From the NCBI GenBank assembly GCA_965217825.1, contig OZ244571.1, positions 1,248,882 through 1,312,881 of the forward strand: a stretch of DNA of 64,000 nt, given 5' to 3'. A program made the translations under genes and the position numbers. This document shows, in pieces, positions 5,967 to 45,000 of this stretch. Each line of letters begins with the position of its first letter. Position 1 is the stretch's first letter. This stretch comes from Candidatus Azotimanducaceae bacterium (GTDB taxonomy: Bacteria; Pseudomonadota; Gammaproteobacteria; Pseudomonadales; Azotimanducaceae). The notes under the pieces are model-generated. The model searched no databases and was not told where the DNA came from. It saw only the letters and a list, made by a program, of their open reading frames with translations.

Positions 5967-6032
5967 ATTGCGTGTGATCGTGAAAGCGTTTCGTGCCTGT
6001 ACGCCGCGCCCGCCGCTTGCGCTGCGCGCGCG

Positions 6033-28478: not shown

Positions 28479-28820
28479 CGTCACGCGAACGGATCGCGCC
28501 AATGGGGCGTGCGTTGCCCTTCCAAAACGTATCACCGCCTCGACCTTGACCATCGAGACTCGTCTGTCCGCGGGCTGCCACGTGACTCGGGACTACGCAG
28601 CCGTGCGCACGGTGCAGGAGCAGGTGGAACGAATCCTCGAAGAGTGGGAGCTTGTAGGCACCAGGGCTCGTTAGCAATATTCCCACATCAAATCGCGCTC
28701 GACGCCGCCATCCAGGGACAGCCCACGCCGACAGACACGTCGTCCGGCGTCTTCCAGCCTTATCGACCCAGGCTGATGCGGGCTGTGAGGATTGCTTCGA
28801 CCCGGCGGTGCCGACCGACA
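28479..28820 (+). mobile_element. solo copy of the ~340-bp region that precedes the IS91-family tnpA at 32705-33046 (IS end remnant)
   Basis: Near-identical to 32705-33046, with a handful of substitutions by eye. Here it is followed by a type III Res fragment instead of tnpA. Confidence 0.6.
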
Positions 28821-28823
28821 GTC

Positions 28824-29922
28824 TTACGAACTCAACGAAGAACACCGCTTCGATGTCGAGTATGCGGATGTATTGGGAATCCCGTTCGACTTTACCGCCA
28901 AACCCGTTCCGCGAAAGGCGAAGCCGCCGCGGGAGACCGTAAGCGCACGGGCCGTTCGACCCGAACGAGACGCGCTCGAAATCCGCTTTCCGAGGGTAGC
29001 CGGCTATCGAGTGGAACTGCCCGAAGCACGGCTGACCGCCGAGTTCAACGAGAATTCGGTGTTGGAATTGACGCCGGATATGGTCGGTCTGTCGATTACC
29101 GTAAACTAGGGGATCATCGGCGAAGGCGTCGACCTGAATCTGGTCCACACTAACGACTTGCGCTATTCAACGCTCGTGTTTCACCTCACGCAGCAACTGC
29201 TCTACACGAAGTGGCGCGACGCCGGCAAGGAGCCGAAACTCCATCTTTTCGGCCAACTGAAGCGCATTACCAGGCAGTGGCTCGATGGCTGTCTCGTTTG
29301 CAAGGGGGGCACGTACCCGGCACAACTCATGTACCAGGAGCTTGCGGACGTGGCCTGCGAGCGCATTACCAGGGCCATCACGCGGGCGGAGATCGGCAAG
29401 CGTCCCGTGAAGGCCGTGTTGGATCCGTACAATCCCACCGGTACAACGTGTAACGTACGCTTCACCACATCGAAAACTGATCGATGGGAGACCGACTCAC
29501 GCTGTTGCCACATTAACTGGGTTATCCTCGACAGTGGCTGGGAAAAAGAATTTTGCCGCGTGGCCGAATCGCATCCCCGGGTACGGGCGTACGTCAAGAA
29601 CCACGCTTTGGGTTTTGAGGTGCCCTACCGCTACGGCTCGGAAACGCGCACGTACCTTCCGGATTTCATCGTTCTCGTGGACGACGGCAAGGGCGTAGAC
29701 GATCCGTTGCATCTCATCGTGGAGATCAAGGGTTATCGAAGAGAAGACGCCAAGGAGAAGAAGGCCACCATGGACACGTATTGGGTGCCCGGTGTGAACA
29801 ATCACGGCGCTTACGTCCGCTGGGCCTTTGCCGAGTTCACGGACGTCTACACGATACAGTCGGACTTCAAGGCCGAGGTGGAATCCGCATTCGGCGAGAT
29901 GATCGAAAGAGCGGCAACGTGA
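28824..29922 (+). pseudogene. type III restriction enzyme Res subunit, C-terminal (endonuclease) part only; 5'-truncated, internal amber codon
   Basis: FDVEYADVLGIPFDF...GIIGEGVDL...STLVFHLTQQLLYTKWRD...YLPDFIVLV...LIVEIKG matches Res C-terminal / PD-(D/E)xK regions. Track ORFs 28792..29109 and 29158..29922 are in the same frame, separated by a single TAG (29107-29109). The helicase half is absent. Confidence 0.65.
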
Positions 29923-29963
29923 TGATCGGCCAGCACTCCAGAGCTTGCTGAAGGGGTCCGGTC

Positions 29964-31718
29964 ATGCCTTGGGATAGTGACAGCTTGATGACTCAACTCG
30001 CACTTGGCGAGGATAGCCGCGTCGAGTTCAAGGAAGTCGAGTTCGCCGGCAATCACGTTCGCGCCCCTCGTCGGGAGACGGTTGCCGACGAGTTGGCTGC
30101 TCTTGGCAACACCATCGGCGGAACGTTGATCTTCAGCGTGTCGGACGCTGGTGAAGTGCGATCGATGAACCGGCACCAGATGGATGCGCTGGAATCCCTT
30201 GTAGGCGAGATTTGCGCGGACAGCATCCGTCCACCACTGGCGTTCGTGACCCAGCGGCTGGCATTGCCGGATGGTTCGTCCGTGCTGGTCGTCGAAGTCG
30301 AACAGAGCGCGTTGGTCCACAAGAGCCCCGCGGGGTACCTTTCCCGGCAGGGCAGTTCCAAGCGTGAACTGGCGTCGGAAGCGCTGCATCGCCTGTTTCA
30401 ACAGCGGGGACGTTCCGGCCTGCTTGGTCCCGACGAAGCGATCATTGCCGGAACCGGGCCCAACACGCTCGATGCGACGCTGGTAGATCGATTCCTGAGT
30501 TCGCGCGCCACCGAACCCACCACGGTTCAACTCACGAAGCTGGGATTGGTGCGGGAGGATGACAGTGGCGTGACCCGTGCAACCGTGGCCGGCGTGCTGC
30601 TTTGCGCTGTGCGCCCGGACCAATACGTAAGCGGCGCCGTGATCGAAGCCGTTCGCTACCGGGGCACGGTGCTAGGCCGTGCAAACCAGCACGATGCAGC
30701 GTCCATCACCGGCCCCTTGGACCGGCAGATCCGGGATGCTGTCAACTTTGTCAGGCTCAACACGCATTTGGCCGCGCGCAAGGCTCCCGGGCGGGTGGAG
30801 ACCCCACAGTTCAGCCCACGGGCGGTGTTCGAAGCGATCGTCAATGCGGTGGTGCACCGCGATTACTCGATAGAGCACGCGAAGATACGGCTCTTCATAT
30901 TCGACGACCGGCTTGAGTTGTATTCGCCCGGCGCACTGCCCAACACGCTGCCCGTCGAAGCCATGCGCAATCGCCAAGCAACGCGCAACGAAACGCTAAC
31001 CTCCAGTCTACGCACGGTTGCGGTTGGGAATATCGACGGCGCAGGCGACCGGCAGTACTTTCTGGAGCAACGCGGCGAAGGCGTGCCGATCATCTACGAG
31101 CAAACTCGGGCTTTGACAGGGCGCGATCCGGAATACCAGCTACTCGGCGGCGCGGAACTGCGGTTGACCATTCCTTCCGCCCGCCCGCCGGTGGCGGGCA
31201 TCGAAGGCGAAGTGTCGGTATCCGTGGCCGGTCGACCGCTGGCAGGAGCCCAGGTCGTTGCGCTGTATCCCAACAAGACCTGGATGGAGGAAACTACCGA
31301 TACGTTCGGTCGAGTCGCTTTTGGGTTTCACTCGGAACTTCCCATTACCGTTTTCTGCGCCGCGCCGGGGCATGGCGGCCAGGTAGCGCGGGATTGGCGG
31401 CCGCCGGAACCGCTCTCTGTACAACTCGAACCGCTACCAGCAGGTGGCTCCATGGCATTCACGGAAGAAACCGGCCATTTGCCCAACTTAAACGGGCGAC
31501 TCAATCCGATCCTTGACAACCTCGACCGCATGTACCTGTATGCGACGAACGTCGCGATCGATGAGGGCAAGCAGCAACCCGTTCACTTCAAACTGAATCG
31601 GCCCTTGCGGCTCACCGATGTCAACGGTTTTGAATGGATCGTGCGGTTCATCGAGATGATCGGAACGTCGGCGCTATTGGACTACGAACGGCCTGGCCCG
31701 CAAAGGAAGGACCGATGA
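29964..31718 (+). CDS. Schlafen/AlbA_2-domain plus HATPase_c_4-like protein with unusual C-terminal beta-rich region
   Basis: The N-terminus GEDSRVEFKEVEF...GGTLIFSVSD...VLVVEVEQS is AlbA_2-like. AVFEAIVNAVVHRDYS...IRLFIFDDRLELYSPGALPN is the COG2865-type ATPase-like domain. The last ~190 aa are not the usual wHTH. Confidence 0.7.
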   Translation: MPWDSDSLMTQLALGEDSRVEFKEVEFAGNHVRAPRRETVADELAALGNTIGGTLIFSVSDAGEVRSMNRHQMDALESLVGEICADSIRPPLAFVTQRLALPDGSSVLVVEVEQSALVHKSPAGYLSRQGSSKRELASEALHRLFQQRGRSGLLGPDEAIIAGTGPNTLDATLVDRFLSSRATEPTTVQLTKLGLVREDDSGVTRATVAGVLLCAVRPDQYVSGAVIEAVRYRGTVLGRANQHDAASITGPLDRQIRDAVNFVRLNTHLAARKAPGRVETPQFSPRAVFEAIVNAVVHRDYSIEHAKIRLFIFDDRLELYSPGALPNTLPVEAMRNRQATRNETLTSSLRTVAVGNIDGAGDRQYFLEQRGEGVPIIYEQTRALTGRDPEYQLLGGAELRLTIPSARPPVAGIEGEVSVSVAGRPLAGAQVVALYPNKTWMEETTDTFGRVAFGFHSELPITVFCAAPGHGGQVARDWRPPEPLSVQLEPLPAGGSMAFTEETGHLPNLNGRLNPILDNLDRMYLYATNVAIDEGKQQPVHFKLNRPLRLTDVNGFEWIVRFIEMIGTSALLDYERPGPQRKDR

Positions 31719-32005
31719 ACAGAGATGAAATCCTGAGCGTCCTCCGAGCGCACAAGGGGACGCTAGCGCGGCGCTTTGGGGTCGCGGAACTCGCAGTGTT
31801 CGGTTCCTTCGCCCGAGACCGGGCCACGGACGACAGCGATCTCGACGTGCTGGTCCGTTTCGACGGCCCCATTCATTGGGAGCGGTATTTCGGCGCCCAG
31901 TTCTATCTGGAGGATCTTCTGGGCCGTCCGGTGGACCTAGTAACCGAAAAAGACTTGCGGCCCGAAGTGTGGCGCTATGTGGAGCGTGAGGTCGCCAATG
32001 TCTGA
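31715..32005 (+). CDS. mntA: MntA-type nucleotidyltransferase antitoxin (type VII TA)
   Basis: The minimal nucleotidyltransferase motif is present (LAVFGSFARDRATDDSDLDVLV). Its ATG overlaps the TGA of the upstream gene (ATGA at 31715-31718). Confidence 0.85.
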   Translation: MNRDEILSVLRAHKGTLARRFGVAELAVFGSFARDRATDDSDLDVLVRFDGPIHWERYFGAQFYLEDLLGRPVDLVTEKDLRPEVWRYVEREVANV

Positions 32006-32268
32006 TGCCGGCCACGAAGGCAGGGCGTGGCGTCACCACGTGCAGGACATGATCGATTTCGCGCGTAGGGCGGTTGCGTATACGCAGGGGAAGACGCAGG
32101 TGGATTTCGTTGCCGATGCGCTCACGTACGATGCCACCCTGCGCAATCTGGAATTGATCGGCGAGGCAGCTACCCATATTCCGAACAGGGTTCGCGAGGC
32201 CCACCCCGAGATTCCGTGGCGCGCGATCATCGGAGTGCGAAACCGCTTGGCGCATGGCTATCTGGGCA
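31998..32268 (+). pseudogene. hepT: HepT (DUF86/HEPN) toxin, 3'-truncated
   Basis: DUF86 sequence with the R-x4-H-x-Y motif (RNRLAHGY). The start overlaps the mntA stop (ATGTCTGA). Homology stops right after HGYLGI, where the duplicated crtI-like fragment begins, and the reading frame runs on into unrelated sequence. Confidence 0.75.
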
Positions 32269-32641
32269 TCGTGACACACACCTCGGCGACGAGTTCCTGC
32301 GTCGCGTCCGCGCCACACGCACCGAGTCGGCGACCTTGCGCATGAACGTGGCGCTCGTCGAACTGCCTGACTTCGCTTGTCGTCCTGGCATCGAGGCAGG
32401 GGACCACCACCGCGCCGGTATCGTCATCGGTCCGACCCTGGACTACCTGGAGCACGCCTGTCTCGAAGCCCGTCGCGGCGACTACTCACAGTTCCCGGTC
32501 ATCGAGATGCTCATCCCGTCGACGGTAGATGATTCCCTCGCGCCCCCGGGGCGCCACGTCGCGAGCCTGTTCTGCCAGCACTTCCCGCGCGACCGGGACT
32601 GGGACACGCATCGGGATGCCGCCGCCGATGCGGTATTCGCC
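32269..32641 (+). pseudogene. duplicated internal fragment of the CrtI-like oxidoreductase gene (copy of ~26528-26899)
   Basis: Alignable by eye base for base with 26528-26899. It is more diverged at its 5' end and nearly identical later. It is part of the chimeric 162-aa track ORF 32216..32704. Confidence 0.8.
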
Positions 32642-32647
32642 ATGATC

Positions 32648-33046
32648 GGCAAGACGCGGTTTCGAATCAAGGGATTCGACGTGCTGCCCTGGTTTCTCGG
32701 CTGACGTCACGCGAACGGGTCGCGCCAATGGGGCGTGCGTTGCCCTTCCAAAACGTATCACCGCCTCGACCTTGACCATCGAGACTCGTCTGTCCGCGGG
32801 CTGCCACGTGACTCGGGACTACGCAGCCGTGCGCACGGTGCAGGAGCGGGTGGAACGAATCCTCGAAGAGTGGGAGCTTGTAGGCACCAGGGCTCGTTGG
32901 CAACATTCCCACATCAAATCGCGCTCGACGCCGCCATCCGGGGACAGCCCACGCCGACAGACACGTTGTCCGGCGTCTTCCAGCCTTATCGACCCAGGCT
33001 GATGCGGGCTGTGAGGATTGCTTCGACCCGGTGGTGCCGACCGCGA
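32648..33046 (+). repeat. copy of 28422-28820: last ~57 bp of the DUF4143 ATPase gene plus the ~340-bp IS91-upstream region
   Basis: GGCAAGACGCGGTTTCGAATCAAGGGATTCGACGTGCTGCCCTGGTTTCTCGGCTGA and the following ~340 bp match 28422-28820 with a few substitutions. Confidence 0.85.
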
Positions 33047-34330
33047 CATCCACGAACGCCACCGACCGGAAGAGACGCCGCTCTATCGCATCGTCGAGAC
33101 CTGCTACCCGAAGTTTCTTGCCCGGCTGGAGGCCGAAGGCGCATCCCCGCCGCATTTCGTCCAGCGGGAGTTCGACGACCACCTGAAGTGCGGCTTGCTC
33201 GAACACGGGTTTCCGCGCGTCAAGTGCGACGCCCGCCGTCACGAGCACCCGGTGGCCTTTTCGTGCAAGCGACGCGGATTTTGTCCATCCCGCGGCGCAC
33301 GTCGGATGGTGGAGTCGGCCGCACATCTCGTCGATCACGTGCTGTCGGAGCAACCCATCCGGCAGTGGGTGCTGACCTTCCCCTACCCGTTACGCTTCCT
33401 GTTCGCCGCCCGGCCGCAAGTACCGAGCCAGATCCCGGGCGTCGTCCACCGTGCGATCTCGACTTGCCTCATCAAAAAGACGGGGTTCACCGTCGCCTCC
33501 GGCGCCAAGACCGGTGCGGTCACCCTGATCCAGGGTTCGGTTCGGCGCTGAACCTCAATATTCACTTCCATATGCTCCTTCTCGACGGGGCGTACAACTT
33601 CAAAGGACGCCGCCCGACGTTTCATCGGGCACCGCGGCCGACTCGCGCCGAGCTCGCGAAGCTGTTGCATACCATCGGCCAGCGGGTGGCCCGATTGCTC
33701 GAACGCCTTGGCCCGCTCGTGCGCGACGCAGACAGCGACCACCTCGACTTCGAGCCCGGTGAGGCTTTCGATCGGCTGGTCGGCGCCTCTATCCACTACC
33801 GGATCGCCATCGGGCCCAACGCCGGCAGGAAGGCATTGACCTCGCGCACCGTCCCGGGACAGTCCGAACCCTTCCCATCCACCTTGCTCGCCGGGCAGCC
33901 GGGCTTTTCGCTCCACGCCGCCACCGTCTGTGAAGCCGCCCAACGCGACAAGCTCGAAAAGCTCTGTCGCCACATCGCACGGCCCGCCATCGCCAACGAG
34001 CGGCTCTCGACCAACGATCGGGGACAAGTCGTCTATCGGTTCAAGCAGCCGTTTCGCGACGGCTCCACCCACGTCGTCCTCGACGCACTCGACTTCATCG
34101 CCCGCCTGGCGGCGTTGGTCCCGCGTCCGCGATCGAACCTCACCCGGTTCCACGGCGTGTTCGCGGCGAATCGCAAGCATCGTGAGTCCGTCGTGCCAAA
34201 ACGCAAACCTCGCCACGAAAAGCCGGATAAGCCCCTTGCCCCCATGACCCGGACGCAGCGCCTGAAACGCGTCTTCGCCATCGACATCGAGACCTGCCCC
34301 AAGTGCGGCGGCAAACTGCGCGTCATCGCC
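33047..34330 (+). mobile_element. IS91-family (Y2 HUH rolling-circle) transposase gene, decayed: frameshifted and 3'-truncated
   Basis: N-terminal zinc-binding region (FVQREFDDHLKCGLLEHGF.RVKCD...FSCKRRGFCPS) and Y2 core (LNLNIHFHMLLLDGAY...LTRFHGVFA). Relative to the copy at 47579-48912, it has a 1-nt deletion near 33531 and loses homology after 34330. Two zinc-ligand Cys are Arg here. Confidence 0.8.
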
Positions 34331-36810
34331 TATTGGTCCAGATCAAATGTTCCCATCGACCGCTGCAAGATTTTGTGGCCCAGACTCACGCGATAGGACT
34401 TGGGCCGTGCATTTCCGCTTTCCAAACCGAAAGATCCCAATACGTTGACTATTCGCTTTATCAGCAATTTAGCATCCTCCTCCCGTTTGGTTCGGTGTAG
34501 CAGTATCGACAGGTTAATTAAATCTGCCGCCACGATCGGGTGTTGGGTGCCAAACGCAGCCTCATCGATCTCCAAGGCACGGCGCGCGAGTTGCTCGGCT
34601 TCCTCCATCCGATTGGTGTCACGATGCAATCGCGCCAAGTTGCTCAAAATAGGTGCCATGGTCCGGTGTTGGGCACCGAAGGCGGACTCAGTGATCGCCA
34701 ACGCTCTCCGCAACAGTGACTCAGCTTCCTCGATCCGATTGGTTCTGTGCAGAAAAATTGCCAAATTGTTCAAGACTATCGCCATATTCGAATGTTCATT
34801 GCCGAAGCTGACCTCATCGACTTCCAGTGCTCTGCGCAATAGCGTCTCAGCTTCCTCGTTTCGGTTGGCGTCATGTAGCAGAAACGCCAACTTATTGAGC
34901 AACGGTGACAAGATTGGGTGCTGTTTGCCGTAGGCGGCTTCACTTATGTCCAGCGCTCTGCGCAATATGGGTTCAGCTTCATCGATCCCCTGGGTGTCGT
35001 GCAGCAATGCGGCCAAGTCGTTCGAAGCCCATGCTATAAGGCCGGTATCGGCGATACCGGTCGCCTCGGCAAGGGCGGGGCGCAATTGATCCTCAGAGTC
35101 CTCCAATCGTGCGAGTTCCTTCAATATCGCGGCGATTCTGAGGCGTTGCCGGATTCGTTCTTTGCCATCGCCCATGCTTTCAAGCGAATCTTGGAGGAAT
35201 GAGAGTTTCGTCTCGGAGAACGTGCGCAGCGTAAGCGTTTTGCCCATCTCCGTAAGCCGGTAGGCGAACTCTTCTAGTTCACCGCTTCGGTGCATTTCCC
35301 AGCATGCGATCATTTCCTCAACTTCTGAAAGATAGTCGCGAGCGGACGGGGTGCTTGTAATGATGCGAGCAATGGATTGGCTTACGGTGTCACCAGCCAG
35401 CGGTGCGGCTTCGAGTATGTAGTTCACTACTTGTTCGGCAACTCCACGGGAGGCGTAGAGCCTAGCCATACTGAACTTCGCGATCGCCTTTTCCTTGGCG
35501 TTGCCGATTTCACTCAGGTAATCGAGGGCCTTTTCCGCATCGAAATTCCCATCTTGGACGACTTTTCCGCGCAGTAGACGCCGTTTTTCTTCTCGCGCGT
35601 CGATGCTCGGGTAGAAGAGGTTGAAAAACTTGAGCAGAAACGGCAGACGTTTGCGCGCACCGCGGGAAAGGTTCATTGCGAGCCAGATATCGAAGAACCC
35701 CTCGCGAATCGTGTAAAGATGCGAGCGTTTGTCTCGCGGGTTCTGGGTTGAGCGAAGGTAGTGGGCATCGGAGAGGCGTTTCAGCAGTGAGGAAGTTTCC
35801 TGCTGGCTCATGCGCATTCGTGCAGCGATTGCGGCCGGCGTCTTTTCCTGGTCGCGCATGCCGGCCAGGCATTCCAGTAGCGCGCGTTGGCCGGGCGGCA
35901 GGTCGTTCAGTCGTCCTTGATAGAACGGCGAAATCCTGTCGAGCAGCAGGTGGAATTGGTCCTGTACGCCGGTGACCGATTCCTGGGCGATCAATTCGTA
36001 GAGCATCATCGTCAGTCGTGGGTTTCCCCCCGTCATTCGATAGAGGGCTTGGAAACGAGGACGCAAGTCATCAAACGTATCGAGAATATCCTTTCGTTCA
36101 TCCCACTGCAGATTCAGCCGGATGACTTCAACGGATTCTTCAAAGCTCAAGTTGTCCAGGATCTGAATGTCAAAGAAGTCGTAAAACGGTTGCCGTATGT
36201 CGGTGATTCCGTCGAAGTGCATCGGTGCGGTGGCCAACAGCAGGCAGCCATTGTCGGCCATTAGGAACTTCCGTAGTGAGGCGATGTCATCCTTGCTACG
36301 GATTTGCCGGGTAAAGATTTCTCCCAGATTTTCGAGCATCACGAGCATCGTGCGATTGCACCGGCGATTCTGTTCGCGGATTGCGGGGACGAGTGTGTCG
36401 ACTACAGTGTCGTTGTCTTCCTCGGTTTCCACGTCGGCAAACAAGTCCGACCATATCGGCTCGTCTTCGAAGACATCTTTCAAAATTCGACAAAGACCGA
36501 TCAGGAAGTCGGCGAAGGAACGCGTCCGATTCGATTCCTCCGGGAATCGCACAACCACCGCCCTCGCACTTAGTGCTTTGTCCGATCGAACAGCGTCTTC
36601 AATGCATGAGAGCAGGTGGGTCTTGCCAATTCCGCGCGGGCCGACAAACAACATGTGATGTTTCGACTTTCTGCCCAAGGAATTTCGCAAGGATTCGATG
36701 GCGTTGTCGAGCAGGTGTTGACGCCCGACGCTGGTTCGGCGCAAGCGCTCCGGACTGGTCACGCCCGACCGGTACAGCCCGATGTTCGTATTGAGGGGCG
36801 GCTCAGGCAT
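34330..36810 (-). CDS. STAND/ORC-Cdc6-like P-loop NTPase with winged-helix segment and C-terminal TPR array (826 aa)
   Basis: Contains VGRQHLL...FVGPRGIGKTH (Walker A), MLVMLENL (Walker B-like), GGNPR, and an HTH-like segment (MSQQETSSLLKRLSDAHYL). There are at least four tandem 42-aa TPR units (LRRALEIDEAAFGTQHP..., LRRALAITESAFGAQH..., LRRALEVDEVSFGNEH..., LRRALDISEAAYGKQH...). The TAG stop straddles the IS91 junction. Confidence 0.75.
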   Translation of the reverse strand: MPEPPLNTNIGLYRSGVTSPERLRRTSVGRQHLLDNAIESLRNSLGRKSKHHMLFVGPRGIGKTHLLSCIEDAVRSDKALSARAVVVRFPEESNRTRSFADFLIGLCRILKDVFEDEPIWSDLFADVETEEDNDTVVDTLVPAIREQNRRCNRTMLVMLENLGEIFTRQIRSKDDIASLRKFLMADNGCLLLATAPMHFDGITDIRQPFYDFFDIQILDNLSFEESVEVIRLNLQWDERKDILDTFDDLRPRFQALYRMTGGNPRLTMMLYELIAQESVTGVQDQFHLLLDRISPFYQGRLNDLPPGQRALLECLAGMRDQEKTPAAIAARMRMSQQETSSLLKRLSDAHYLRSTQNPRDKRSHLYTIREGFFDIWLAMNLSRGARKRLPFLLKFFNLFYPSIDAREEKRRLLRGKVVQDGNFDAEKALDYLSEIGNAKEKAIAKFSMARLYASRGVAEQVVNYILEAAPLAGDTVSQSIARIITSTPSARDYLSEVEEMIACWEMHRSGELEEFAYRLTEMGKTLTLRTFSETKLSFLQDSLESMGDGKERIRQRLRIAAILKELARLEDSEDQLRPALAEATGIADTGLIAWASNDLAALLHDTQGIDEAEPILRRALDISEAAYGKQHPILSPLLNKLAFLLHDANRNEEAETLLRRALEVDEVSFGNEHSNMAIVLNNLAIFLHRTNRIEEAESLLRRALAITESAFGAQHRTMAPILSNLARLHRDTNRMEEAEQLARRALEIDEAAFGTQHPIVAADLINLSILLHRTKREEDAKLLIKRIVNVLGSFGLESGNARPKSYRVSLGHKILQRSMGTFDLDQ

Positions 36811-38032
36811 AGTATTTCCTCCACCACAACTTCAGCACGCCGCTGGCGAAATCGTATTTTGAATTTTCGATTTCGACGATGTAGAAATCGTTCTCGAGGT
36901 CGAGCAATAGACGATTGAATAGTTGTTTGCGTTCATGCGACGGGAGTTCGAGGCCAAGGTCCGCCAGCAGGCGTTCCGTTTCCTGCAACAGCGTTTCACG
37001 CCGCAGCCCTGACGCGGACATGCTGATCTGGCCGAGCAAGGCAGGGGCAATCGAACGCTCCGGGTCCTTGTAGTATTGCCGTATCCGCGAATGGAAGTGT
37101 TGTAGCCGGGTGCGGGCGCCGGAACTGACAATGAGCGCGTCGAACACGGCATCGACATCCGACGCTAGGATTTTGCGATGCTCACGTTTCCACAACCGGT
37201 AGAGATCCTGGGTAAGCATCTGCATGAACAGCGGGATGGGACGGCCCAGGCGAACGATTAGCCGTTCCGAAACGTCTTCTTCAAATGGGACGCCTCGCCC
37301 TCCTAGCATATCGTTCACGAAGGTTCCAATGTCACCGTCGGAGAGCGGAGGCAGAGGCATGTCTTCAAGGTCGTTGATGAGATCTACCAGCCCGAGCGCG
37401 TCGAGAGTCGATGCCAAGTTGACCGAGCCGCCAACCAGCCAACGAATTGAGTCTCTGGCCGGTGCGGGGCCTAGCCGTTGGGTGCGAAACCAGCCGAGGA
37501 ACTCGCGCAGCAAGGGTTCGTTTTGCCGGGACAGGTTGAGCAGCATGTCGGGAAATTCGTCGACGATGAACAGAATAGGCACGCGGGTTTTGCGTGCTTG
37601 GGCGAGAAACCGGTCACCGTGGTGTCGCCAGTTTTCGCGCCAATCGGGGGCGCCTTGGCGTAGCGCGAGTTTGAAACCTCCTACTCCAATTTCATCGATC
37701 CTTCCAAGCACACCATTCACGAGCCCCCAACCTGCAGCAAGTTGGTCGCGGACGAAGTTCGGGTGCCCATCATGCAATGCATCGATCAGCACTTGGAAGA
37801 AGTCGGCTGGATGGGTCAGATCCTGGGTATTGATCGAAACCACCGAGAATCCGTTTTCGGGATGGTCACGCATGTGGTCCATAACGCTGGTTTTGCCGGT
37901 TCGTCGGGGTGCCGTCAGTACCACATGCCCGGCGCGCAACGTTTGCCAGAGTTCCCTCAGAAACGCACCGCGAAATCGCAGGTCAACAGGGTCGATGGGA
38001 GCCCCGGTATAGAATTCGGGCATCTGGTCCAT
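36803..38032 (-). CDS. AAA_16/Arch_ATPase-like P-loop NTPase (409 aa)
   Basis: FRGAFLRELWQTL...LTAPRRTGKTS (Walker A) and ILFIVDEFP (Walker B), with a helical C-terminal half. The start is set at MDQMPEF (ATG 38032). The stop overlaps the downstream gene's start by 8 nt (ATGCCTGA). Confidence 0.75.
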   Translation of the reverse strand: MDQMPEFYTGAPIDPVDLRFRGAFLRELWQTLRAGHVVLTAPRRTGKTSVMDHMRDHPENGFSVVSINTQDLTHPADFFQVLIDALHDGHPNFVRDQLAAGWGLVNGVLGRIDEIGVGGFKLALRQGAPDWRENWRHHGDRFLAQARKTRVPILFIVDEFPDMLLNLSRQNEPLLREFLGWFRTQRLGPAPARDSIRWLVGGSVNLASTLDALGLVDLINDLEDMPLPPLSDGDIGTFVNDMLGGRGVPFEEDVSERLIVRLGRPIPLFMQMLTQDLYRLWKREHRKILASDVDAVFDALIVSSGARTRLQHFHSRIRQYYKDPERSIAPALLGQISMSASGLRRETLLQETERLLADLGLELPSHERKQLFNRLLLDLENDFYIVEIENSKYDFASGVLKLWWRKYYA

Positions 38033-38075
38033 TTGCACATCAATTTTGTTGTAAAACAGAGTTGCCGGATAAATA

Positions 38076-38103
38076 ACTATACGACGATATTGATGTATGT
38101 CAA
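38076..38103 (-). promoter_or_regulatory. near-consensus sigma70-type promoter for the NTPase pair
   Basis: The minus strand reads TTGACA (38103-38098), 16 nt, then TATAGT (38081-38076). It sits in an AT-rich spacer ~45 nt upstream of the ATG. Confidence 0.45.
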
Positions 38104-38284
38104 TTCTGTCTAGAAAATGCAAACTGGCGCAGTCGCGCCCCAACAGTAACGTTGATCTCGAACTTCGAGTACATGCTCGCGCGCGTGAAGTCCGATTTCG
38201 GGCTGGACAAGTCCCCCGGAGACCGATTTCGTGTTCTTCTCGATGGCCGAGACCGCGGAGGCGGTCAGCGCAGAGGCGGGCTGA

Positions 38285-38463
38285 CCCCGACGTTTCATCG
38301 GGCACCGCGGCCGACTCGCGCCGAGCTCACGAAGCTGTTGCACACCATCGGCCGGCGGGTGGCCCGTTTGCTCGAACGCCTTGGCCCGCTCGCGCGCGAC
38401 GCAGACAGCGACCACCTCGACTTCGAGCCCGGTGAGGCTTTCGATCGGCTCGTCGGCGCCTCG
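38285..38463 (+). mobile_element. internal 180-bp fragment of an IS91-family transposase gene
   Basis: TFHRAPRPTRAELTKLLHTIGRRVARLLERLGPLARDADSDHLDFEPGEAFDRLVGAS matches 33612-33790 and 48060-48238 at the DNA level. Confidence 0.8.
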
Positions 38464-38592
38464 AGCGAGCCTTTGCGATCCGACCTCCTGGCAAAGCGTC
38501 GGAACCTGATGGACGCATGGGCGCAGTTCGTCACGGGAACGCCCGAGGACGTGCTCAACTTCGATGACCGGGTGCGCCAGGGAACCGCTTGA
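38464..38592 (+). pseudogene. probable C-terminal tail of a tyrosine (P4-type) integrase
   Basis: ...RSDLLAKRRNLMDAWAQFVTG... resembles the Y-x-R-x-x-x-L-x-x-RR-x-x-M-x-x-WA tail of P4-like integrases. It is fused in frame behind the IS91 fragment. This is recognition from memory only. Confidence 0.4.
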
Positions 38593-38689
38593 ACCATCCG
38601 GTCCGCAGATGCCGGCTCCCCTTCCGGTCGTCACCAACGTTTTCGCCTCGGGTCCCGCCGTATCACCCGAAGCGCTGCGGCGAACCGCC

Positions 38690-38973
38690 GGTTCATCCGC
38701 GGCCAGAACCACTCGCGAAGATAGGCCGTTCGCGTCCGATGTCCCGGTGATCCCGCCCAGGGCCAGTTTCCGCGGCAGACGCCCCTGCGCCGTCCCGAAC
38801 CAGCGTTGCGACCGACCGCGCGACTTCGTCGAGTACGACGGGATCATCTCGATCCCCAACTCCCCGATCGCCCTGCCGAACTGCGTCGGGTTGGCCCTGC
38901 ACACCTTCCCGCCCGCCGCCGGCGCCCAGTAGTGCGACCCCGGTCCGTGTACAGGGTGCTCGAGGTTCCCCAC
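38690..38973 (-). pseudogene. fragment of an rve-superfamily (DDE) transposase/integrase
   Basis: TQFGRAIGELGIEMIPSYSTKSRGRSQRWFGTAQGRLPRKLALGGITGTSDAN parallels the TQFGRAL.ELGI..I.A.SPQAKGR.ER..GTLQDRL..EL...GI motif block. No N-terminal part is present. Confidence 0.5.
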
Positions 38974-39006
38974 TCGAGCGGCCCGGTGGGTGTCGTTGAA
39001 GGGACC

Positions 39007-42000
39007 TTAGCGGTCCGGCGCGTCGTCCGCGCGTAGCTCCGCCACCACGTTCGCCCCCCATCGGTGCCACCAGCTCGGGAGCGGCTCCACCGTCACCGCG
39101 AAGGTCGCCTCGACGACGCGGCCCTCGCCGTCCTCGGCCTTCACCGTCACCGTCGTCTCGCCGTCCTCGCCAACGTCGTTCGGCGTGATGACCAGCACGT
39201 CCCCGGCCACCCGCACGCGGACCAGGGTCGGATCCGCGGTCACCGCCGTGTACGTCAACCTGCCGCCCGGTACGACGGCGAAGAAACGCGAGAGACGCAG
39301 GCTCTCCCCGTCTCCCAGTGCCGAAAACTCCAGGTCGGGGATCGCCGCGGCCAAGGCGGGTGGCGTCCGCGCGCCTACGCGCGCCGCGGCGCCGGGTCCC
39401 TGCATATTGACGGCCCGCACTTCGAACGTGTACGCAGTGGCATTGGCGAGCCCCTGGACCACGTGACTCTCGACCGCGGCATCCGGCAAATCCGTCCAAT
39501 CCGGCGCCCAGGTGCCGCCCCCGTCCGCGCTCTGCCGGAACTGGTAGCCGGTGATGGCCGCTCCACCGGGATTCCCGGGTGGCGACCACCGCAGGGTCAC
39601 CCGGTGCTCGCGGGGCGTTGCCGAGAGATCCTGGGGCGGACCCGGGGTGCCGACAATGATGGTCGCCCGCGCCGAACCGGCGCCGGGTCCGCTCGCGTTC
39701 ACGGCGCGCACCTCGAAGCCGTAGCGCAACCCGTCGGTCAGTCCGCCGACCTCGAACACCCGCGTCTCGGCGTTGTTGTCCGGCACGTCGATCCAGGCGG
39801 GATCCCAGGTGTCGCCGCCGTCGGCGGTGCGCTGGTACTGGTAGCCGGCCACGGGCGAGAGGCCCGTGTCGTCGGGACGCGACCAGGTCAACGTCGCCCG
39901 GCCCGACCCCACCTCGGCCTCGAGCCGCGGTGGACCGGGCGCGGTCGAGGCGGGCGGCGACCAGTGGGTCGCGCCGATCGGGGTGACCGCCCTGACGCGG
40001 TACGTGTGCGGGGTGCCATTCGGGGGCGCCGAATCGGCATGGGACGTTCCCGCTCCCGCGTGCGGGGGATCGACGTCGGCGAAGGGTCCGCCGCCAACCC
40101 TGCGCTGCAGCTCGTAGCGCGTGATCTCGTCACCCGCATCGAGCGGGGCGTCCCACGTCACGACGATCCCGTCGGCGTCGGTGTCGCTTGCCCCTACCGC
40201 AACGCCGGACGGCCCGCGCTGCGGACCGAACTCCCGAGCGGTCGCTTCGCCGTCGGCGTCCGCGTCGATCTTGAGTGCCGGGTATGCGCCGGCCTCGAAC
40301 GACCAGGGGCCGTCGGGTTCGCCGTCGCCGTCGAGATCGATGTTCCAGTCCCGGTAGATGCCGTCGTACCCCGACGGATCCACAAGATCCGCGGTCGTGC
40401 GGCTGCCGACCGACGAGGCGGGGAAGCCCACGGCGATTTCCCCCGCAGCGTGGCGCTCCGAGTAGCTCCGCGCAACCTCCGCTCCGTTGTCTACCCGTTC
40501 GCCTACGACGCCGCCGCCGCGCTCCCGGGCAATGACGGCGCCCGTCGCGTAGCTGGCGACGATGCGGCCTTCCACGTTCAGTCGACCGACGAGACCGCCG
40601 ACGCTTCGGTCGCCCGAGATGGTCCCCGTGGCATAGCTGCCGGAGATGGTCCCGCCGGAGAGCCCGGCCAAGCCCCCGACGTACGCGTCGCCCGCCACGC
40701 GGCCAGTTGCGTAGCTGGCGACGATCGGTCCGGCATTCCTCCCTACCAGACCACCGACGATCCCGTCGCCCGTTACGTCTGTATGAGCACGGGTGTTGTG
40801 GATTGAGCCTCCCGCATCATCGGACGTGGAAACGTAGCCCACCACTCCCCCGACGTCCACGTGGCCCTCAACGGTCCCGGTGGTAACGACGCCGTGCACG
40901 CGCCCCGCGCTGCTACCGGCTATCGTGCCGACGTTCTCTCCGCCGGCAACGGCGACCCCGACCACGCGTAGGTTCCGCACGGTTCCTCCCCGCTCGACGC
41001 TCGCGAACAGACCGACGCGGAACGAGGCAAGTGTCCCGACAGCCGATTCGCCGCGGTCGATGAACAGGCGCGAAATCGCATGACCGTTGCCCTCGAAAAC
41101 CGCGTGAAAGAAATCCTTCGTGTAGCGGGCGAACAGGCCTTCCCCAAAGAGAAACGACACACCGCCGATCGGTTCCCAGCCGAGGCCGTCGTTCCAGAAC
41201 CGGTCGCCCGCGTCGGCGGCGCCGCTGCCGTTCGTGTCGAAGTCGAGGTCCGCGGCCAGTTCGTAGCCGATGCAGCCGCCAACGCACCCCATGCCGTGCA
41301 GGCGATCGGGGTAGGCCGCGTCGTACGCATCCGCCATCGCGGGCGTGGGAACGCGAGGTGATCCCGCGCTCCCGACGGTGGCATCGCCGTCCGGATCGAA
41401 GCGGATGGCATCGAGCTGACCGAGATCCGCGACCTCGATCAGGCCGTCGTCGTCGCGGTCGTAGTCCACCCGGACGGTGACCTCCACCGCCTGCTGCGCG
41501 GTCTCGCCGGACCCTTCCCCGTCGGTCGCCGACACGCTCACGGTCGCCGCGCCTCCGGCCACCGGCGTCGCGGTCACCGTCGAGTCCCGGACGCCGACCG
41601 ACACGACATCCGGATCGGAGGACTCCGCAGCGTAGGACAGATCGTCACGGTCGGGGTCGTGGAAGTGCGGCGACGCATCGAAGCGCCACGGCGTCCCGGA
41701 TAGAACGAGCGTACGCCCATCGATGGGTTCGCCCGGCCGCGGCGCAGCGTTGACGACTTCGACCTCGAAGTCCAGTTCGGCGGTCTGTTCCCCGTCGCTT
41801 GCCGTCACCGTCACCGTCGCGACGCCCGCGCCGACGGCCTCGACCAACAGCCCGTCTCCGGACGGACCGGCAACCGCGACATCCGGGTCCGTGACGCGGG
41901 CGGCGTACGACAGCGCATCGCCCTCGGGATCGACGAATACCGACGCGACGTCCGCCGTCTCCTGCTCCCCCGTCTTGAGCGATACGGCGGGAATGGCGCC

Positions 42001-45000
42001 TTCCACGGTCGGCGCCCGGTTGTCGTCCGCCGCCGGATTGACCGTCAGCCTGAACGTCGCCGTTGCCGACAGAGGCGGCGTTCCCGCGTCGGTGGCCGTC
42101 ACACGGACGTCCGTCGTCGCCGCATCGGTTTCTCCCGGCGTACCCGAGAACGTCCGCGTCGCCGCGTCGAACGCCAGCCACCCGGGCGTCCCCGGGGCGA
42201 GGTAGGCAACCGCGTCGCCGTCGGGGTCGCCACCGGGCGGGAACACGTACCGGAACGACTCGCCGACCCGCGCCGCCCGGTGAGCCACGTGGGGAGCGGC
42301 GGGCCGCCGGTTGACCACTGCGACGGGGGCACTGCGCACCGGCTCGCCGCCATCGACCTCCGCGGCGACCTGGTACTCGTAGCGCACGGCAACCCCGCTT
42401 CCCTGCGGCGTGGCCGTCGAAGGTGGTCGGTCCTCGTACGCCGTCTCGGCGACATCGGCGGCAAGGAGCTCGCCGTTCCGGTAGATGTTGTAGCGGATGC
42501 CGCGAGGCGCCGGCCAATGGGCAGGGGATTCGCTCCAGGCCAGTCTCGCCCGGCCGTTCGAGGCGGTCATGGCGAGGCGTGGTGGTTCGCGGAGCTGACG
42601 GCCGAACTCCTGCCACGTGCGCGCGCCGTCGGCGTCGAGGTCCGCTTTGAGCCCCGGATACTGCTCCGGAGTGCCGAAGTCCCAGGGGTCGTAGCCGTCC
42701 GACGCCGACCCGTCGCCGCGCGGAGCGGGGAACCCGCCCGGGTAGGAGCCGTTGTCCTTCTTCGCCGCGACCCGCCAGTTCGCGTAGATGCCGCGGTAGC
42801 CCCGTGGACCGGTCAGTTCCGCGGTCGTCTTCCCGGTGACGCCCCTCGATCTCGTCTCGACGCCATCCACGCGTCCGTTGCCGTCCGCGTCGTCCGAGCC
42901 GACGCCGACCGCCGTATCGGAGGTCTCCACGTCCCAGTAGCTCGTGTAGATCGGTGCCGAGAAGCGCACGTGCCCGACCAGACCGCCGACACGGCGCCTG
43001 CCGGCCACCGGACCGGTGCTGAAGCTGGCCCACACCTCCAGCCTGTCCAATCCTAAACCGACCAAGCCGCCGACATCCTCCACACCGGAGACCGGCCCCG
43101 TCGCATACGAGCCGATGATCGCCCCGTTGAACCATCCCGCGAGGCCCCCTACCCTGTACTGGCCCGTCACGATCCCGGTGGCGTACGACCCCCCGATCGA
43201 CGCGAACAACAAGCCTTTGCCGACGAGCCCGCCGACATCGTCGCGGCCGGACACCTCGGCCGCGGCATGGCTGTGGACGACCTCCGATTGACTGTAGCCG
43301 GCCAGGCCGCCGACGAAATCGAGTCCCGCAACCCGCCCGGTGACCCTCACGCCTTCGACGCTGTTCCTGCCGCAGCCCCGGTTGCCGCAGTTGCGAAGGC
43401 CGCCCGCCAGGCCACCGACGTACCGTCGGCCCTCGACGTCCACGTCGACAACCCCCAGGCTCTGAATTCTCCTGTCCTGGTATTCGACCGTCTTGCCTCC
43501 CCAGAACCCGCCGAAGAGCCCCACGTTGTCCCGGTCACTCCGGTCGATGAACAGGCTGGCGATGGCACGGCCGTTGCCGTGGAAATCCCCGGCGAAACAG
43601 TCCTCGGGCCGCACCAGTCCCTGATAGTCGGCGCGCGAATTCCCGATCGGTACCCAGCCCGCGCCGCCCTCGCTCCGGCTCCAGCCCCGGTCGACCCGGC
43701 CGGACGCGTAGCTCCCCGCCTCGTCGAAGTCCAAGTCCCGGGTCAGTTCGTAGCCCGTGCAGCCCGTCTTGCAGCCCATGTCCCGGACCGCGTCCGGAAA
43801 CGCCTCGAAATACCGGTCCTGAGCCGCCAGTGCGTCCTCCACGCCGTCCCCGTCGAGGTCGAGGCGCACGGCGTCGAGCTGCTCCAGCGTCGCGATCTCG
43901 ATCAGGCCGTCGCCGTCCGTATCGTAGTCCGTCTCGCCCCACTCGCGATCCACCGCCACTGCGAAGGTCTCGAGCACGCTGAGTCCCCCGGCATCGGTCG
44001 CCCGCACGGTGACCGCCGCCGTCCCGCGCCGGGTCGGCGTCAGCGTCAGCATCGATCCTTCGATGCCGGTCCGCACGACTTCGGGGTCGCCGGTGAGCGC
44101 CGAGTAGGCGAGTTCGTCGCCGTCGGCATTCTCGAAGTGCGCGGAGAGGTCGACGGTCTCGCCGTCCAGCCCGAGCAGCGTGCGCTCGCCGATCCGCACG
44201 GCGACGGTCGGCGCGCGGTGCTCGTCCGGCGAGTCCAGCGCCGCGACCGCCGACGGCGCCACGACGATCCCGGCCCCCGCGTTGCGGTCCGCGCCCTCGG
44301 ACCCGATGTCAAGCGCGCCGGCTGTCAGCGCGGCACGGAGTTCCGCCGGGGACACCCGCCTCGGGCCGCCCGCGGCCTGCAACGCCAGCGCGGCGATCGC
44401 CGCCGCGTGCGGCGCCGCCGCCGACGTGCCGTGGAAGTCGCGGAACCCGGGCGTCGCCGTCGACACTCCGTCCGCCGCCGCGATGTCCGGCTTCGCGACC
44501 AGGACGCCGCCGTCGGCGCCGAAGTTGCCGGGGGTGACCGGCGTGCCGTCGGGCTCGTAGAACATCCGCCGCGGACCGTCGGAGCTGAAGCTCTCGACCG
44601 CCTCCGAGCCGTCGAACGCCCCGTCCGCGCCGCCGGCGGTGCGGGCGTCCACCGCTGCCGCGGTGACCGCGCTCTTCGCGCCCAGGTGGCCGAAGATCTG
44701 TCCCTCGGTGGCTTGCTCCAGCCGGCCGCGCAGGGTGTTTAGCCGGAGGTAGCGGTCCTCGCCGGACGCCTTCACCACCACCAGCCGCGATCCGACTTCC
44801 GCTGCGGACAACGGAACCCGCTCGTACGGGTCCGAGCCCCCCTCCTGCGTGTCCGTCGAATTCGCCAGCAGTTCGGTCAGCGTCTCGTCGAACAGATACA
44901 GGTCGTAGTCGTTCGCCGATGCGCCCAGCGGGTCCGCCCACTTCAACTGCAGCGCCAGACCCAGCGCGGCGATGGCGTTGGAGTTGGATCCACCGAAGTC

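Follow-up and report, generated by a model that had tools for sequence, protein, structure and literature searches.

An apparently mobile module of two coupled ORC/STAND-like NTPase genes in Candidatus Azotimanducaceae, a candidate NLR-like sensor pair

Results

Organization of the Locus

The window analyzed here is a stretch of 64,000 nt from Candidatus Azotimanducaceae bacterium (contig OZ244571.1, positions 1,248,882 to 1,312,881 of the forward strand), in which a first-pass annotation, made from the letters alone, had singled out a coupled pair of STAND/ORC-like NTPase genes as a candidate conflict or defense module. Gene A (36803..38032, minus strand) encodes 409 aa and gene B (34330..36810, minus strand) encodes 826 aa; the stop of A and the start of B overlap by 8 nt (ATGCCTGA, 36803..36810, minus strand), exactly where that annotation had placed them, and the overlap points to translational coupling. 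Homologs of A are 409-411 aa long, which supports the start at 38032; some gene callers choose a Met three codons inward, giving 406 aa. The predicted sigma-70-type promoter upstream of A, TTGACA-16 nt-TATAGT (38076..38103, minus strand; -35 box at 38103-38098, -10 box at 38081-38076), is borne out with 11/12 consensus matches, and both hexamers are kept across phyla in the clade closest to the window, whose metagenome-assembled genome (MAG) lineages we take to be sponge-associated.

The cassette, promoter included, covers ~3.8 kb (34330-38104). GC content is 0.51-0.60 across 34250-38250 versus 0.64-0.77 on either side, so the low-GC block first judged by eye is confirmed by computation; an Rfam scan of 28000-40000 returned no RNA family. 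The block appears to be a self-contained, horizontally mobile two-gene module, and its initial description as a coupled ORC/STAND-like NTPase pair foreign to its surroundings stands. Its nearest indexed relative, locus L001 (OZ242179.1), is 99.3% identical at the nucleotide level and has a different IS91 arrangement. An exact database look-up of the window's A protein gave no identical record, so the window matches no indexed contig exactly, and the cassette itself was found with exact identity in four public sequencing runs. In runs that hold it, conserved sub-blocks of the cassette have raised assembler depth, indicating that several cassette variants co-occur in one sample.

The Two Proteins

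The product of gene A (36803..38032, minus strand) is, by Pfam, an AlphaFold2 (AF2) model and profile comparison, a stand-alone ORC/Cdc6-like AAA+ ATPase with a C-terminal winged helix. Its translation contains the helper motif RFRG...L, Walker A APRRTGKTS and Walker B ILFIVDEF with the canonical DE pair, as the first reading had it. LRFRGAFL, with a near-invariant R21, precedes Walker A; D158 and E159 are near-invariant in 77 diverse A relatives, and Walker B is DE in all 80 loci where the motif could be matched. A carries GRPIP and the winged helix, which is acidic, and has no repeats. Pfam finds AAA_22 (E 4.6e-7). The AF2 model (pLDDT 72) has as its best PDB fold match 2qen, the PF01637-type ATPase PABY2304 (Foldseek E 6e-10, TM-score 0.60/0.69), followed by archaeal and eukaryotic Orc1/Cdc6 proteins at TM-scores of 0.32-0.49. 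A profile of the 77 relatives matches 2qen and 2fna at E ~1e-7. Single-sequence searches of A and B against PDB chains gave nothing; only profiles reached 2qen/2fna and, for B, MarR proteins. Among the 77 relatives, PF01637 is found in 35 (E <= 0.01, best 3.9e-10), AAA_22 in 47, nSTAND1 in 11 and nSTAND6 in one. Clustering at 50% identity yields ~1,560 representatives of the A family, of which 841 reach E <= 1e-10; nearly all listed full-length representatives are ~380-420 aa long.

The product of gene B (34330..36810, minus strand) consists, from Pfam and AF2, of an NTPase with lid and winged helix-turn-helix (wHTH), a helical linker, five kinesin light chain (KLC)-type tetratricopeptide repeat (TPR) units and a C-terminal cap. 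In Pfam order, weak AAA_22/AAA_16 matches are followed by a MarR_2 wHTH (aa 303-363) and five TPR_12 matches (E 5e-53); TPR_10 also matches (E 1e-31). The motifs SVGR...LL, GPRGIGKTH, MLVMLENL and GGNPRL had likewise been read correctly from the translation. Walker A, GPRGIGKT (aa 57-64; 36619..36642, minus strand), is preceded by TSVGRQHLL with a near-invariant R30. In an alignment of 21 diverse B N-termini, R59, G60, G62, K63 and N161 are invariant, N161 (MLENL) standing in place of the catalytic Glu; G262, R265 and L266 of GGNPRL are also invariant. Walker B of B is EN or DN in 69/69 loci with a matchable motif, and never DE or DD. In AAA+ proteins, substitutions of the Walker B Glu leave ATP bound and poorly hydrolyzed; by analogy, the [D/E]N Walker B predicts that B binds ATP and hydrolyzes it poorly.

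A comparison of the A family with the B N-terminus (hhalign probability 97.7%, E 2e-12) aligns 320 columns over ATPase, lid and winged helix, at B residues ~26-380; A is a paralog of the first ~390 residues of B. Several helices lie between β2 and β3 in the AF2 models of both proteins, which may represent the initiator-type insertion.

The wHTH of B (aa 303-367; 35710..35904, minus strand; MarR_2, HTH_27) bears the D-K-R-S motif in its wing, and its recognition helix is near-invariant (S340, L343, R345). It scores 36.7 bits against MarR_2 (cut-off 27) and 26.8 bits against MarR (cut-off 24.6), and with the B profile, solved MarR regulators come up at E 1e-5 to 1e-3. The likeness is at the domain level only, B not being a stand-alone MarR protein of ~150 aa. 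The TPR array consists of five tandem 42-aa KLC/TPR_12-type units (aa 587-796; 34423..35052, minus strand), a putative ligand sensor. An HTH and at least four TPR units had been proposed; the HTH proves to be a true MarR-type domain, and the units number five rather than four. The AF2 model of B (pLDDT 75) has KLC1/2 TPR domains as top fold matches of its TPR region, and the sole full-length match is the STAND-TPR protein 6mfv (E 2.5e-8, 818 columns, TM-score 0.25-0.31). As had been noted for both proteins, Pfam, PADLOC and NCBIfam scans of A and B found no nuclease, protease, TIR, SIR2 or membrane domain.

Conservation of the Pair

A B-like gene lies directly after A in ~95 informative loci from at least six phyla, at A identities down to 28%, with one exception. 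In a scan of one genome per species, B directly follows A in 20/20 loci, from Gammaproteobacteria (Azotimanducaceae, Rariloculaceae, Pseudomonadales), Paracoccaceae (Alphaproteobacteria), Latescibacterota, Verrucomicrobiota and Thermoguttaceae (Planctomycetota). The same holds for 80 metagenome loci whose A is 28-53% identical to the query, wherever the contig continues, except L076, in which a NifU-like gene follows A. The pair also occurs in metagenome-assembled Verrucomicrobiota and Planctomycetota from peat, soil and freshwater, and plasmids of Clostridium tagluense hold a repeat-less pair annotated as "ATP-binding protein" and "hypothetical protein." One of these, from a cultured isolate (L110, NZ_CP077608.1, plasmid pCM008-C, 6953-9713), encodes WP_220323089.1 and WP_220323088.1 with an 11-nt overlap; the latter, its B, has 530 aa, no repeats and a DN Walker B. 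Elsewhere, source annotations of the two proteins read "AAA family ATPase" and "tetratricopeptide repeat protein."

In 59/93 loci the two genes share the 8-nt overlap, and in most of the rest they are spaced within ±11 nt. Pairwise identity of A rises and falls with that of the B N-terminus (r = 0.95); A and B are co-inherited and co-evolving. Adjacency, on which the first-pass annotation had staked its reading, is conserved in essentially every locus examined, and homologs showed no tie to a housekeeping or MalT-like regulon in these loci. The conserved third gene that had been entertained was not found: an all-against-all comparison of flanking open reading frames (ORFs) gave neither a conserved third gene nor an effector neighbor. 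A scan of viral contigs, a tblastn search of phage genomes and a fold search of BFVD yielded no phage-borne relatives, only generic AAA+ proteins.

A Family-Wide Palindrome Upstream of A

Over the 85 nt that precede A, identity between phyla is 73-87%, versus 53-70% at third codon positions of A, a comparison that leaves out two mis-registered cases. Within the 150 nt upstream of A, the palindrome GTTGYRCAAC is present exactly in 37 of 89 non-redundant loci and with at most one mismatch in 65. The 89 upstream regions hold 46 exact sites and 90 sites with at most one mismatch, versus 0.13±0.36 and 2.7±1.8 in 200 dinucleotide-preserving shuffles; because the loci share phylogenetic history, these counts do not represent independent events. 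Density is 3.45/kb upstream of A versus 0.008/kb in the remaining 832 kb of the loci. Sites gather 20-50 nt before the A start codon, often with a 16-nt period, and a lattice consensus of that period, CAACAAwwwwTTGTTGyrCAACAAwwwwTTGTTG, is visible at flanking positions that were not used for selection; we write the consensus operator array as GTTGTACAAC-N6. At 28-50% protein identity, unconstrained non-coding DNA would not keep a 10-mer.

In the window, two candidate operator copies 16 nt apart lie between the -10 box and the A ATG (38032..38057, minus strand): GTTTTACAAC at 38048-38057, with one mismatch to GTTGYRCAAC, and the weaker GATGTGCAAA at 38032-38041, with two. An alignment of 23 upstream regions shows a further, clade-specific palindrome, ATTGACATACATCAAT, over the -35 box (38089..38104, minus strand). 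It is partly conserved, and changes in its arms keep the symmetry, as in TTGACATACGTCAA of L013; it may be an operator as well.

The MarR wing and near-invariant recognition helix of B, together with the acidic winged helix of A, lead us to infer that B, rather than A, would bind the lattice and thereby autoregulate the operon. A genuine MarR-type domain and a family-wide operator upstream of A also mean that a DNA-binding or regulatory output has to be taken seriously. In its plainest form, the pair would be an ordinary signaling device, with B a STAND-type, ligand- and ATP-gated transcription factor of the MalT/AfsR kind and A its paralogous co-ATPase, autoregulating and, on a cellular or environmental signal, controlling unlinked host genes outside immunity. 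The wHTH above Pfam cut-off and matched to solved MarR regulators, the family-wide palindrome, the lack of an effector domain, the housekeeping surroundings of many loci and a weak likeness of the B TPR region to TPR_MalT and AfsR all fit this reading. The distribution of the operator fits it less well: it is near-absent from the flanks at the density given above, no copies stand ahead of neighboring genes in the loci, and the few extra exact sites lie inside gene A, in one clade. There are no conserved neighboring target genes. Transfer between phyla, at 72-80% nucleotide identity, with the module's own promoter and operator is unlikely for a regulator of a host-specific regulon, and the sensor swapping, repeat hypervariability, PIN fusion and frequent pseudogenization described below are atypical of housekeeping regulators. 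We regard a purely regulatory role as unlikely, though it is the main rival.

The intragenic sites are exact GTTGCRCAAC copies at the same codon position of A (…DVAQR…) in L004:8760, L005:8760, L055:1432, L057:1703 and L067:1718, loci that belong to the sponge clade; the window's A does not have it. They could reflect chance codon choice or be an internal operator.

Diversification of the Sensor

On a constant N-terminal module, the C-terminus of B is exchanged: KLC-type TPR_12 units in the window's clade, TPR_1/TPR_11 or HEAT_2/PBS-HEAT repeats elsewhere, no repeats (meaning a C-terminal region that has no Pfam repeat or domain match), or a form of ~2,500 aa. In the TPR_12 clade, B lengths cluster at 699, 741, 783 and 825 aa, in steps of one 42-aa unit. 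Across 169 distinct TPR units, positions 4, 7, 8, 14, 17, 18 and 22 have 2.4-3.2 bits of entropy and most others less than 0.7, a spacing that fits one face of a helix (helix A of the unit), which may be the ligand-binding face. In two independent loci a segment of the ~2,500-aa form matches PIN-TPR-GreABC at 34.1 and 35.9 bits (cut-off 27.8). Giant B proteins of this kind, at L058:2404-9987 and L061:2649-10190 and also in L060 and L078, have the usual NTPase-wHTH head, few TPRs and PIN, and more than 1,000 further residues that match no family.

The KLC-type array also bears on the idea of a "eukaryotic-like" sponge-symbiont factor, in which an array of the KLC/NPHP3 type would act on proteins of the host. 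The closest clade comes from lineages presumed to be sponge-associated, and the TPR units are most like those of animal kinesin light chains. Yet the same pair is carried by peat, soil and freshwater MAGs and by plasmids of cultured Clostridium and Methylomonas, and other clades have HEAT repeats, classical TPRs or no sensor. What is conserved is the cytoplasmic NTPase-wHTH part and the operator, and no secretion signal or linkage to a secretion system was seen, signal peptides not having been formally predicted. A sponge-specific eukaryotic-like effector was rejected on account of the non-sponge carriers and the other sensor types, and we consider a role directed at host proteins extremely improbable.

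The IS91 Junction and the Native End of B

On the B side, the cassette abuts an IS91-family transposase gene that is frameshifted and 3'-truncated (33018..34330, plus strand; Zn_Tnp_IS91 E 4e-13, Y2_Tnp E 8e-29); this remnant is context, outside the module. The junction lies at 34328..34330, at or just 3' of the TAG of B: homology of the cassette to L001-L003 stops at 34328 and IS91 homology at 34330. The upstream flank contains a tnpA fragment of ~55 aa, also IS91, found by self-similarity. The description of the flanking debris therefore holds for IS91 on both sides; the "integrase" and "DDE" fragments named upstream are plausible by motif and have no Pfam match. In public runs with the cassette, the IS91-derived segments 32500-34371 and 38116-38583 have assembler depths of 100-1000 versus 19-35 for the cassette, which indicates that the IS91 family is highly repeated in the community.

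It had been suggested that, with the TAG straddling the junction, the native C-terminus of B, possibly an effector, might have been cut off. The position of the TAG is right; the truncation is not. Cassette DNA is 92.8-99.3% identical to L001-L003 (Candidatus Azotimanducaceae and Azophilus MAGs), which share the TAG and the next two bases, and their DNA beyond this point differs from the window, being hairpin-forming and unrelated to IS91. Since the stop and two further bases are shared despite different downstream DNA, the stop is native and nothing has been cut. In L001-L003 the native 3' end carries, ~1-25 nt past the B stop, the hairpin GGCAAC-N9-GTTGCC, a possible terminator or site of recombination; the window has IS91 in its place, and no terminator-like site follows B. 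IS91 thus replaced the 3' untranslated end and not coding sequence. Full-length B homologs from other phyla share the C-terminal cap (…F..TG.EHP……NY.AL..AMG…) and end within a few residues of each other, which counts against a hidden C-terminal effector in this clade. No extra C-terminal domain was seen in the clade of B either, where 120 listed homologs have only AAA, MarR/HTH and TPR Pfam families, a few isolated accessions having been set aside, unexamined, as presumed spurious. The loss of a C-terminal B effector to IS91 was rejected on the strength of the native stop in L001-L003 and the common cap.

Mobility, Decay, and Genomic Context

Between phyla, DNA homology of the cassette (72-82%) sets in ~70-110 nt ahead of A and runs as far as the TPR region or the B stop; with the closest copies included, the range is 72-99%. 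IS91 adjacency is limited to the Azotimanducaceae copies; L001 has IS91 copies on both sides, arranged unlike those of the window. In one lineage (L022, L107, L108, L023-L025) the pair lies between xdhC and the gene for the large subunit of xanthine dehydrogenase, an integration hotspot whose cargo includes MazE/PIN, Phd/PIN, an Eco57I-type restriction-modification (RM) system, Transposase_31 and a truncated copy of the dehydrogenase gene; in L107 the Eco57I-type RM system is accompanied by an extra methyltransferase. L021 has HEPN/MNT pairs flanking A-B, a SIR2 fragment and a DDE transposase, and the surroundings of L106 are of a housekeeping kind, with dnaK-dnaJ-dapB among them. Of 127 flanking ORFs that were sampled, a minority match defense models (type I RM, type II methyltransferase, Dsr1-like, PDC candidates), a share to which no background rate is attached; the link of the pair to known defense genes is only modest and suggestive.

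Decay is frequent. B is frameshifted or shortened in L008, L012 and L023; in L014 an insertion of ~7 kb interrupts it, and A lacks its 5' end (L014:8881-9612 and 16567-16884). On a Methylomonas sp. AM2-LC plasmid (L109, CP157006.1, 8998-10700), A is intact at 52% identity and B is cut after ~residue 62, inside Walker A, by an insertion with inverted repeats of ~30 nt, resembling a miniature inverted-repeat transposable element. Downstream, the size and layout of the ORFs, the only criteria applied, point to a probable type I RM system, and three large adjacent upstream ORFs (4126-7385), which were not scanned, may encode recombinases.

Such surroundings raise the question of a selfish or maintenance function of mobile DNA, with the pair acting as a toxin-antitoxin (TA)-like couple in which the DNA-binding B restrains the active ATPase A, as an ORC-like replication or partition factor, or as a transposition-helper ATPase like IstB, TniB or TnsC; it would then persist by promoting its own retention. 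A compact, autoregulated cassette resembles type II/IV TA operons, and the module sits beside IS91 copies, on plasmids and among TA pairs; AAA_22 includes TniB-like proteins, weak IstB P-loop matches occur, and the fold is similar to that of Orc1/Cdc6 initiators. Set against this, the loci do not consistently have a transposase, integrase or replication gene beside the pair, matches to IstB and TniB cover the P-loop only (E >= 0.02), and viral contigs and phage genomes gave no match. The junction comparison brought no terminal repeats to notice, no dedicated repeat search having been made, and neither partition nor addiction would obviously call for a large protein-binding sensor that diversifies. 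The narrower proposal of an IS91 transposition helper was rejected, given that the IS91 arrangement differs between copies and no transposase is linked throughout. A selfish function seems to us quite improbable.

In the window itself, an overlapping MNT (NTP_transf_2, 123 aa) and HepT-like HEPN RNase (122 aa) pair lies at 31634-32345 (plus strand), a toxin-antitoxin pair to the left of the IS91 remnant, akin to the HEPN/MNT pairs of L021. Next to it, at 29964-31718 (plus strand), is a gene for a 584-aa protein with Schlafen AlbA_2 and HATPase_c_4 domains, an architecture common in defense or mobilome islands. On the other side, 39007-46683 (minus strand) is an ORF of 2,558 aa in DNA of 70-77% GC. 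It has a Peptidase_S8 subtilase domain along with He_PIG, Big_9 and fn3 (three copies) and is unrelated to the cassette; its product is probably secreted or surface-located and belongs to the host genome.

Relation to Known Families and Systems

Scanned against PADLOC 2023 and NCBIfam 2026, A and B matched nothing beyond noise at the level of the P-loop or the TPRs, and we found no published description of an equivalent pair, the nSTAND2 operon being the only related item in the literature. The pair belongs with the NTPase-plus-repeat-sensor switches, a known kind, and is itself undescribed in the sources found. The first-pass annotation, which could name no such system, thus agrees with the profile scans, though it missed a published precedent in the nSTAND2 two-gene operon (PMC8195603).

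The closest family by fold and profile is PF01637 (ATPase_2)/DUF234, which has the layout of A (N-terminal hhGR, P-loop, lid, C-terminal winged helix) and whose solved structures, 2qen (PABY2304) and 2fna (SSO1545), are the best matches of A. At the curated cut-off of 33.2 bits, the window's A has no match and its B reaches 16.4 bits; B of L082 exceeds it at 46.2 bits. The window pair would thus be a relative of PF01637 at superfamily level rather than a member at the curated cut-off. The PF01637 family has no assigned function and, to our knowledge, has not been described as an obligate pair or with repeat sensors.

Some features of the STAND NTPase superfamily, whose definition is said to go back to Leipe and coworkers in 2004, are found in both proteins. 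The hhGR(E) motif precedes the P-loop strand in A and B, Walker A is intact in both, and Walker B is hhhhDE in A and an atypical hhhh[DE]N in B; lid GxP, winged helix and repeats are present in B (GGNPRL, wHTH 303-367, TPRs), and A has GRPIP and a winged helix, repeat-less. Matches to curated STAND models are weak: B matches NACHT at E 0.004, below cut-off, nSTAND5 and nSTAND1 are sub-threshold in B relatives, and models 1, 5 and 6 of the nSTAND series match A and B relatives only weakly. The best structural neighbors being ORC/Cdc6 and PF01637, the pair is placed at the ORC-STAND boundary.

The order NTPase-winged helix-TPR of B is that of STAND-TPR proteins (PH0952/6mfv, MalT, AfsR); PH0952 is reported to work by TPR-mediated autoinhibition. 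B departs from these proteins in lacking a LuxR or SARP output domain, in its [D/E]N Walker B and in always having a paralogous partner gene. With no LuxR domain, no conserved neighboring genes, 36.6 bits against TPR_MalT (cut-off 45) and 39.5 against AfsR (cut-off 1430), B does not fall among MalT/LuxR-type regulators.

Kaur et al. 2021 (PMC8195603) predicted the nSTAND2 system, a mobile operon whose two genes both encode STAND NTPases and whose products are proposed to join in a hetero-multimer; the inactive one of the two, with its NTP-binding motifs eroded, carries fused GT4 or HEPN effectors (PMC8195603). Our pair shares with it the mobile two-gene operon, the common NTPase core and one catalytically compromised partner (PMC8195603). 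It differs in that both P-loops are intact, with only the Walker B Glu of B replaced, and in that B has a wHTH and repeats and usually no effector. The adjacent paralogous NTPases apart, the pair does not have the nSTAND2 architecture, GT4 and HEPN being lacking; no nSTAND2 model was identifiable among the matches.

With Avs/NLR-like defense the pair shares a logic, namely an NTPase switch joined to a diversifying C-terminal repeat sensor, mobility and protein sensing (PMC13581612). Each Avs protein is one chain that bears its effector at the N-terminus (PMC13581612); unlike them, the pair has two NTPase genes and no effector, the NTPase of B begins at residue ~30, and there is no PADLOC Avs match.

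Archaeal Orc1/Cdc6 pairs, such as the heterodimer on origin DNA in 2qby, resemble A and B in the AAA+ β2-β3 insertion and C-terminal winged helix, and in having two paralogs together and repeated DNA sites beside the genes. Unlike these initiators, the pair does not lie in an origin context and has, in B, a sensor array; it belongs to the mobile accessory DNA of bacteria, and the TM-scores already given reach only 0.32-0.49. The ORC-CDC6-like model PF24389 gives sub-threshold, P-loop-only matches and genomic contexts vary, which does not speak for an initiator. Nor does the pair group with IstB, TniB or TnsC, since IstB matches are limited to the P-loop (E 0.02-1) and no transposase is conserved next to it. 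In plants, sensor/helper NLR pairs are two adjacent paralogous NTPase genes, one with a recognition module, and carry signaling domains; we draw on them as an analogy only and claim no homology.

Discussion

Our best explanation, held with no more than middling confidence, is that genes A and B encode an autoregulated, mobile, DNA-binding, NLR-like heteromeric NTPase sensor pair that probably serves biological conflict, for example against phages or mobile elements. A conflict or defense role is favored by the mobility, patchy distribution, sensor swapping, hypervariability and decay of the module, by some defense-island contexts and by the PIN-bearing subclade. At rest, B would sit on the operator lattice, probably through its MarR-like wHTH, and repress the operon, its TPR array keeping it autoinhibited as in other STAND-TPR proteins. 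A protein ligand on the concave TPR face would free the NTPase module of B, and ATP-bound B might then nucleate a hetero-oligomer with the hydrolysis-competent A. Output would come from DNA binding of the A-B assembly, as derepression, transcriptional reprogramming or a block of replication or transcription; a fused enzyme would provide it only in the distant subclade in which B has a PIN RNase domain.

Several points weigh against this conflict role. In the window's clade, Pfam, PADLOC and NCBIfam reveal no effector domain, and neither A nor B has a significant match to a PADLOC or NCBIfam defense model. Most of the 127 sampled flanking ORFs are metabolic or transport genes, and many loci lie in housekeeping surroundings. 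A MarR-type wHTH with a conserved operator is equally expected of a plain ligand-gated transcription factor. The AF2 models of A and B are of moderate confidence (pLDDT 72-75) and come from shallow alignments, and hetero-oligomerization, the protein assigned to the operator and the ligand are themselves predictions.

A more specific form of the argument takes the lack of an effector at face value. In such effector-free, NLR-like immunity, the ligand-gated, hydrolysis-deficient sensor B would nucleate an ORC-like oligomer with the active A that acts directly on DNA, clamping or remodeling that of invader or host so as to stop replication or transcription, or responding through the operator lattice, and the TPR and HEAT arrays would form a repertoire for recognizing phage proteins. 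We consider this version, mechanism and recognition repertoire alike, rather unlikely.

The system lends itself to experiment: it spans 3.8 kb with its own promoter and a candidate operator, it offers the asymmetry of DE versus [D/E]N and natural sensor variants, and it is found on plasmids of cultured Clostridium tagluense and Methylomonas. Should the pair prove to be a plain regulator, its family-wide operator and obligate pairing of paralogs would constitute a new architecture for STAND-type transcription control. If instead it serves immunity or conflict, the NLR-like repertoire of bacteria would gain a widespread family, an ORC/Cdc6-type ATPase pair would be seen to work without a fused effector, and the large group of PF01637-like ATPases would have a first functional handle.

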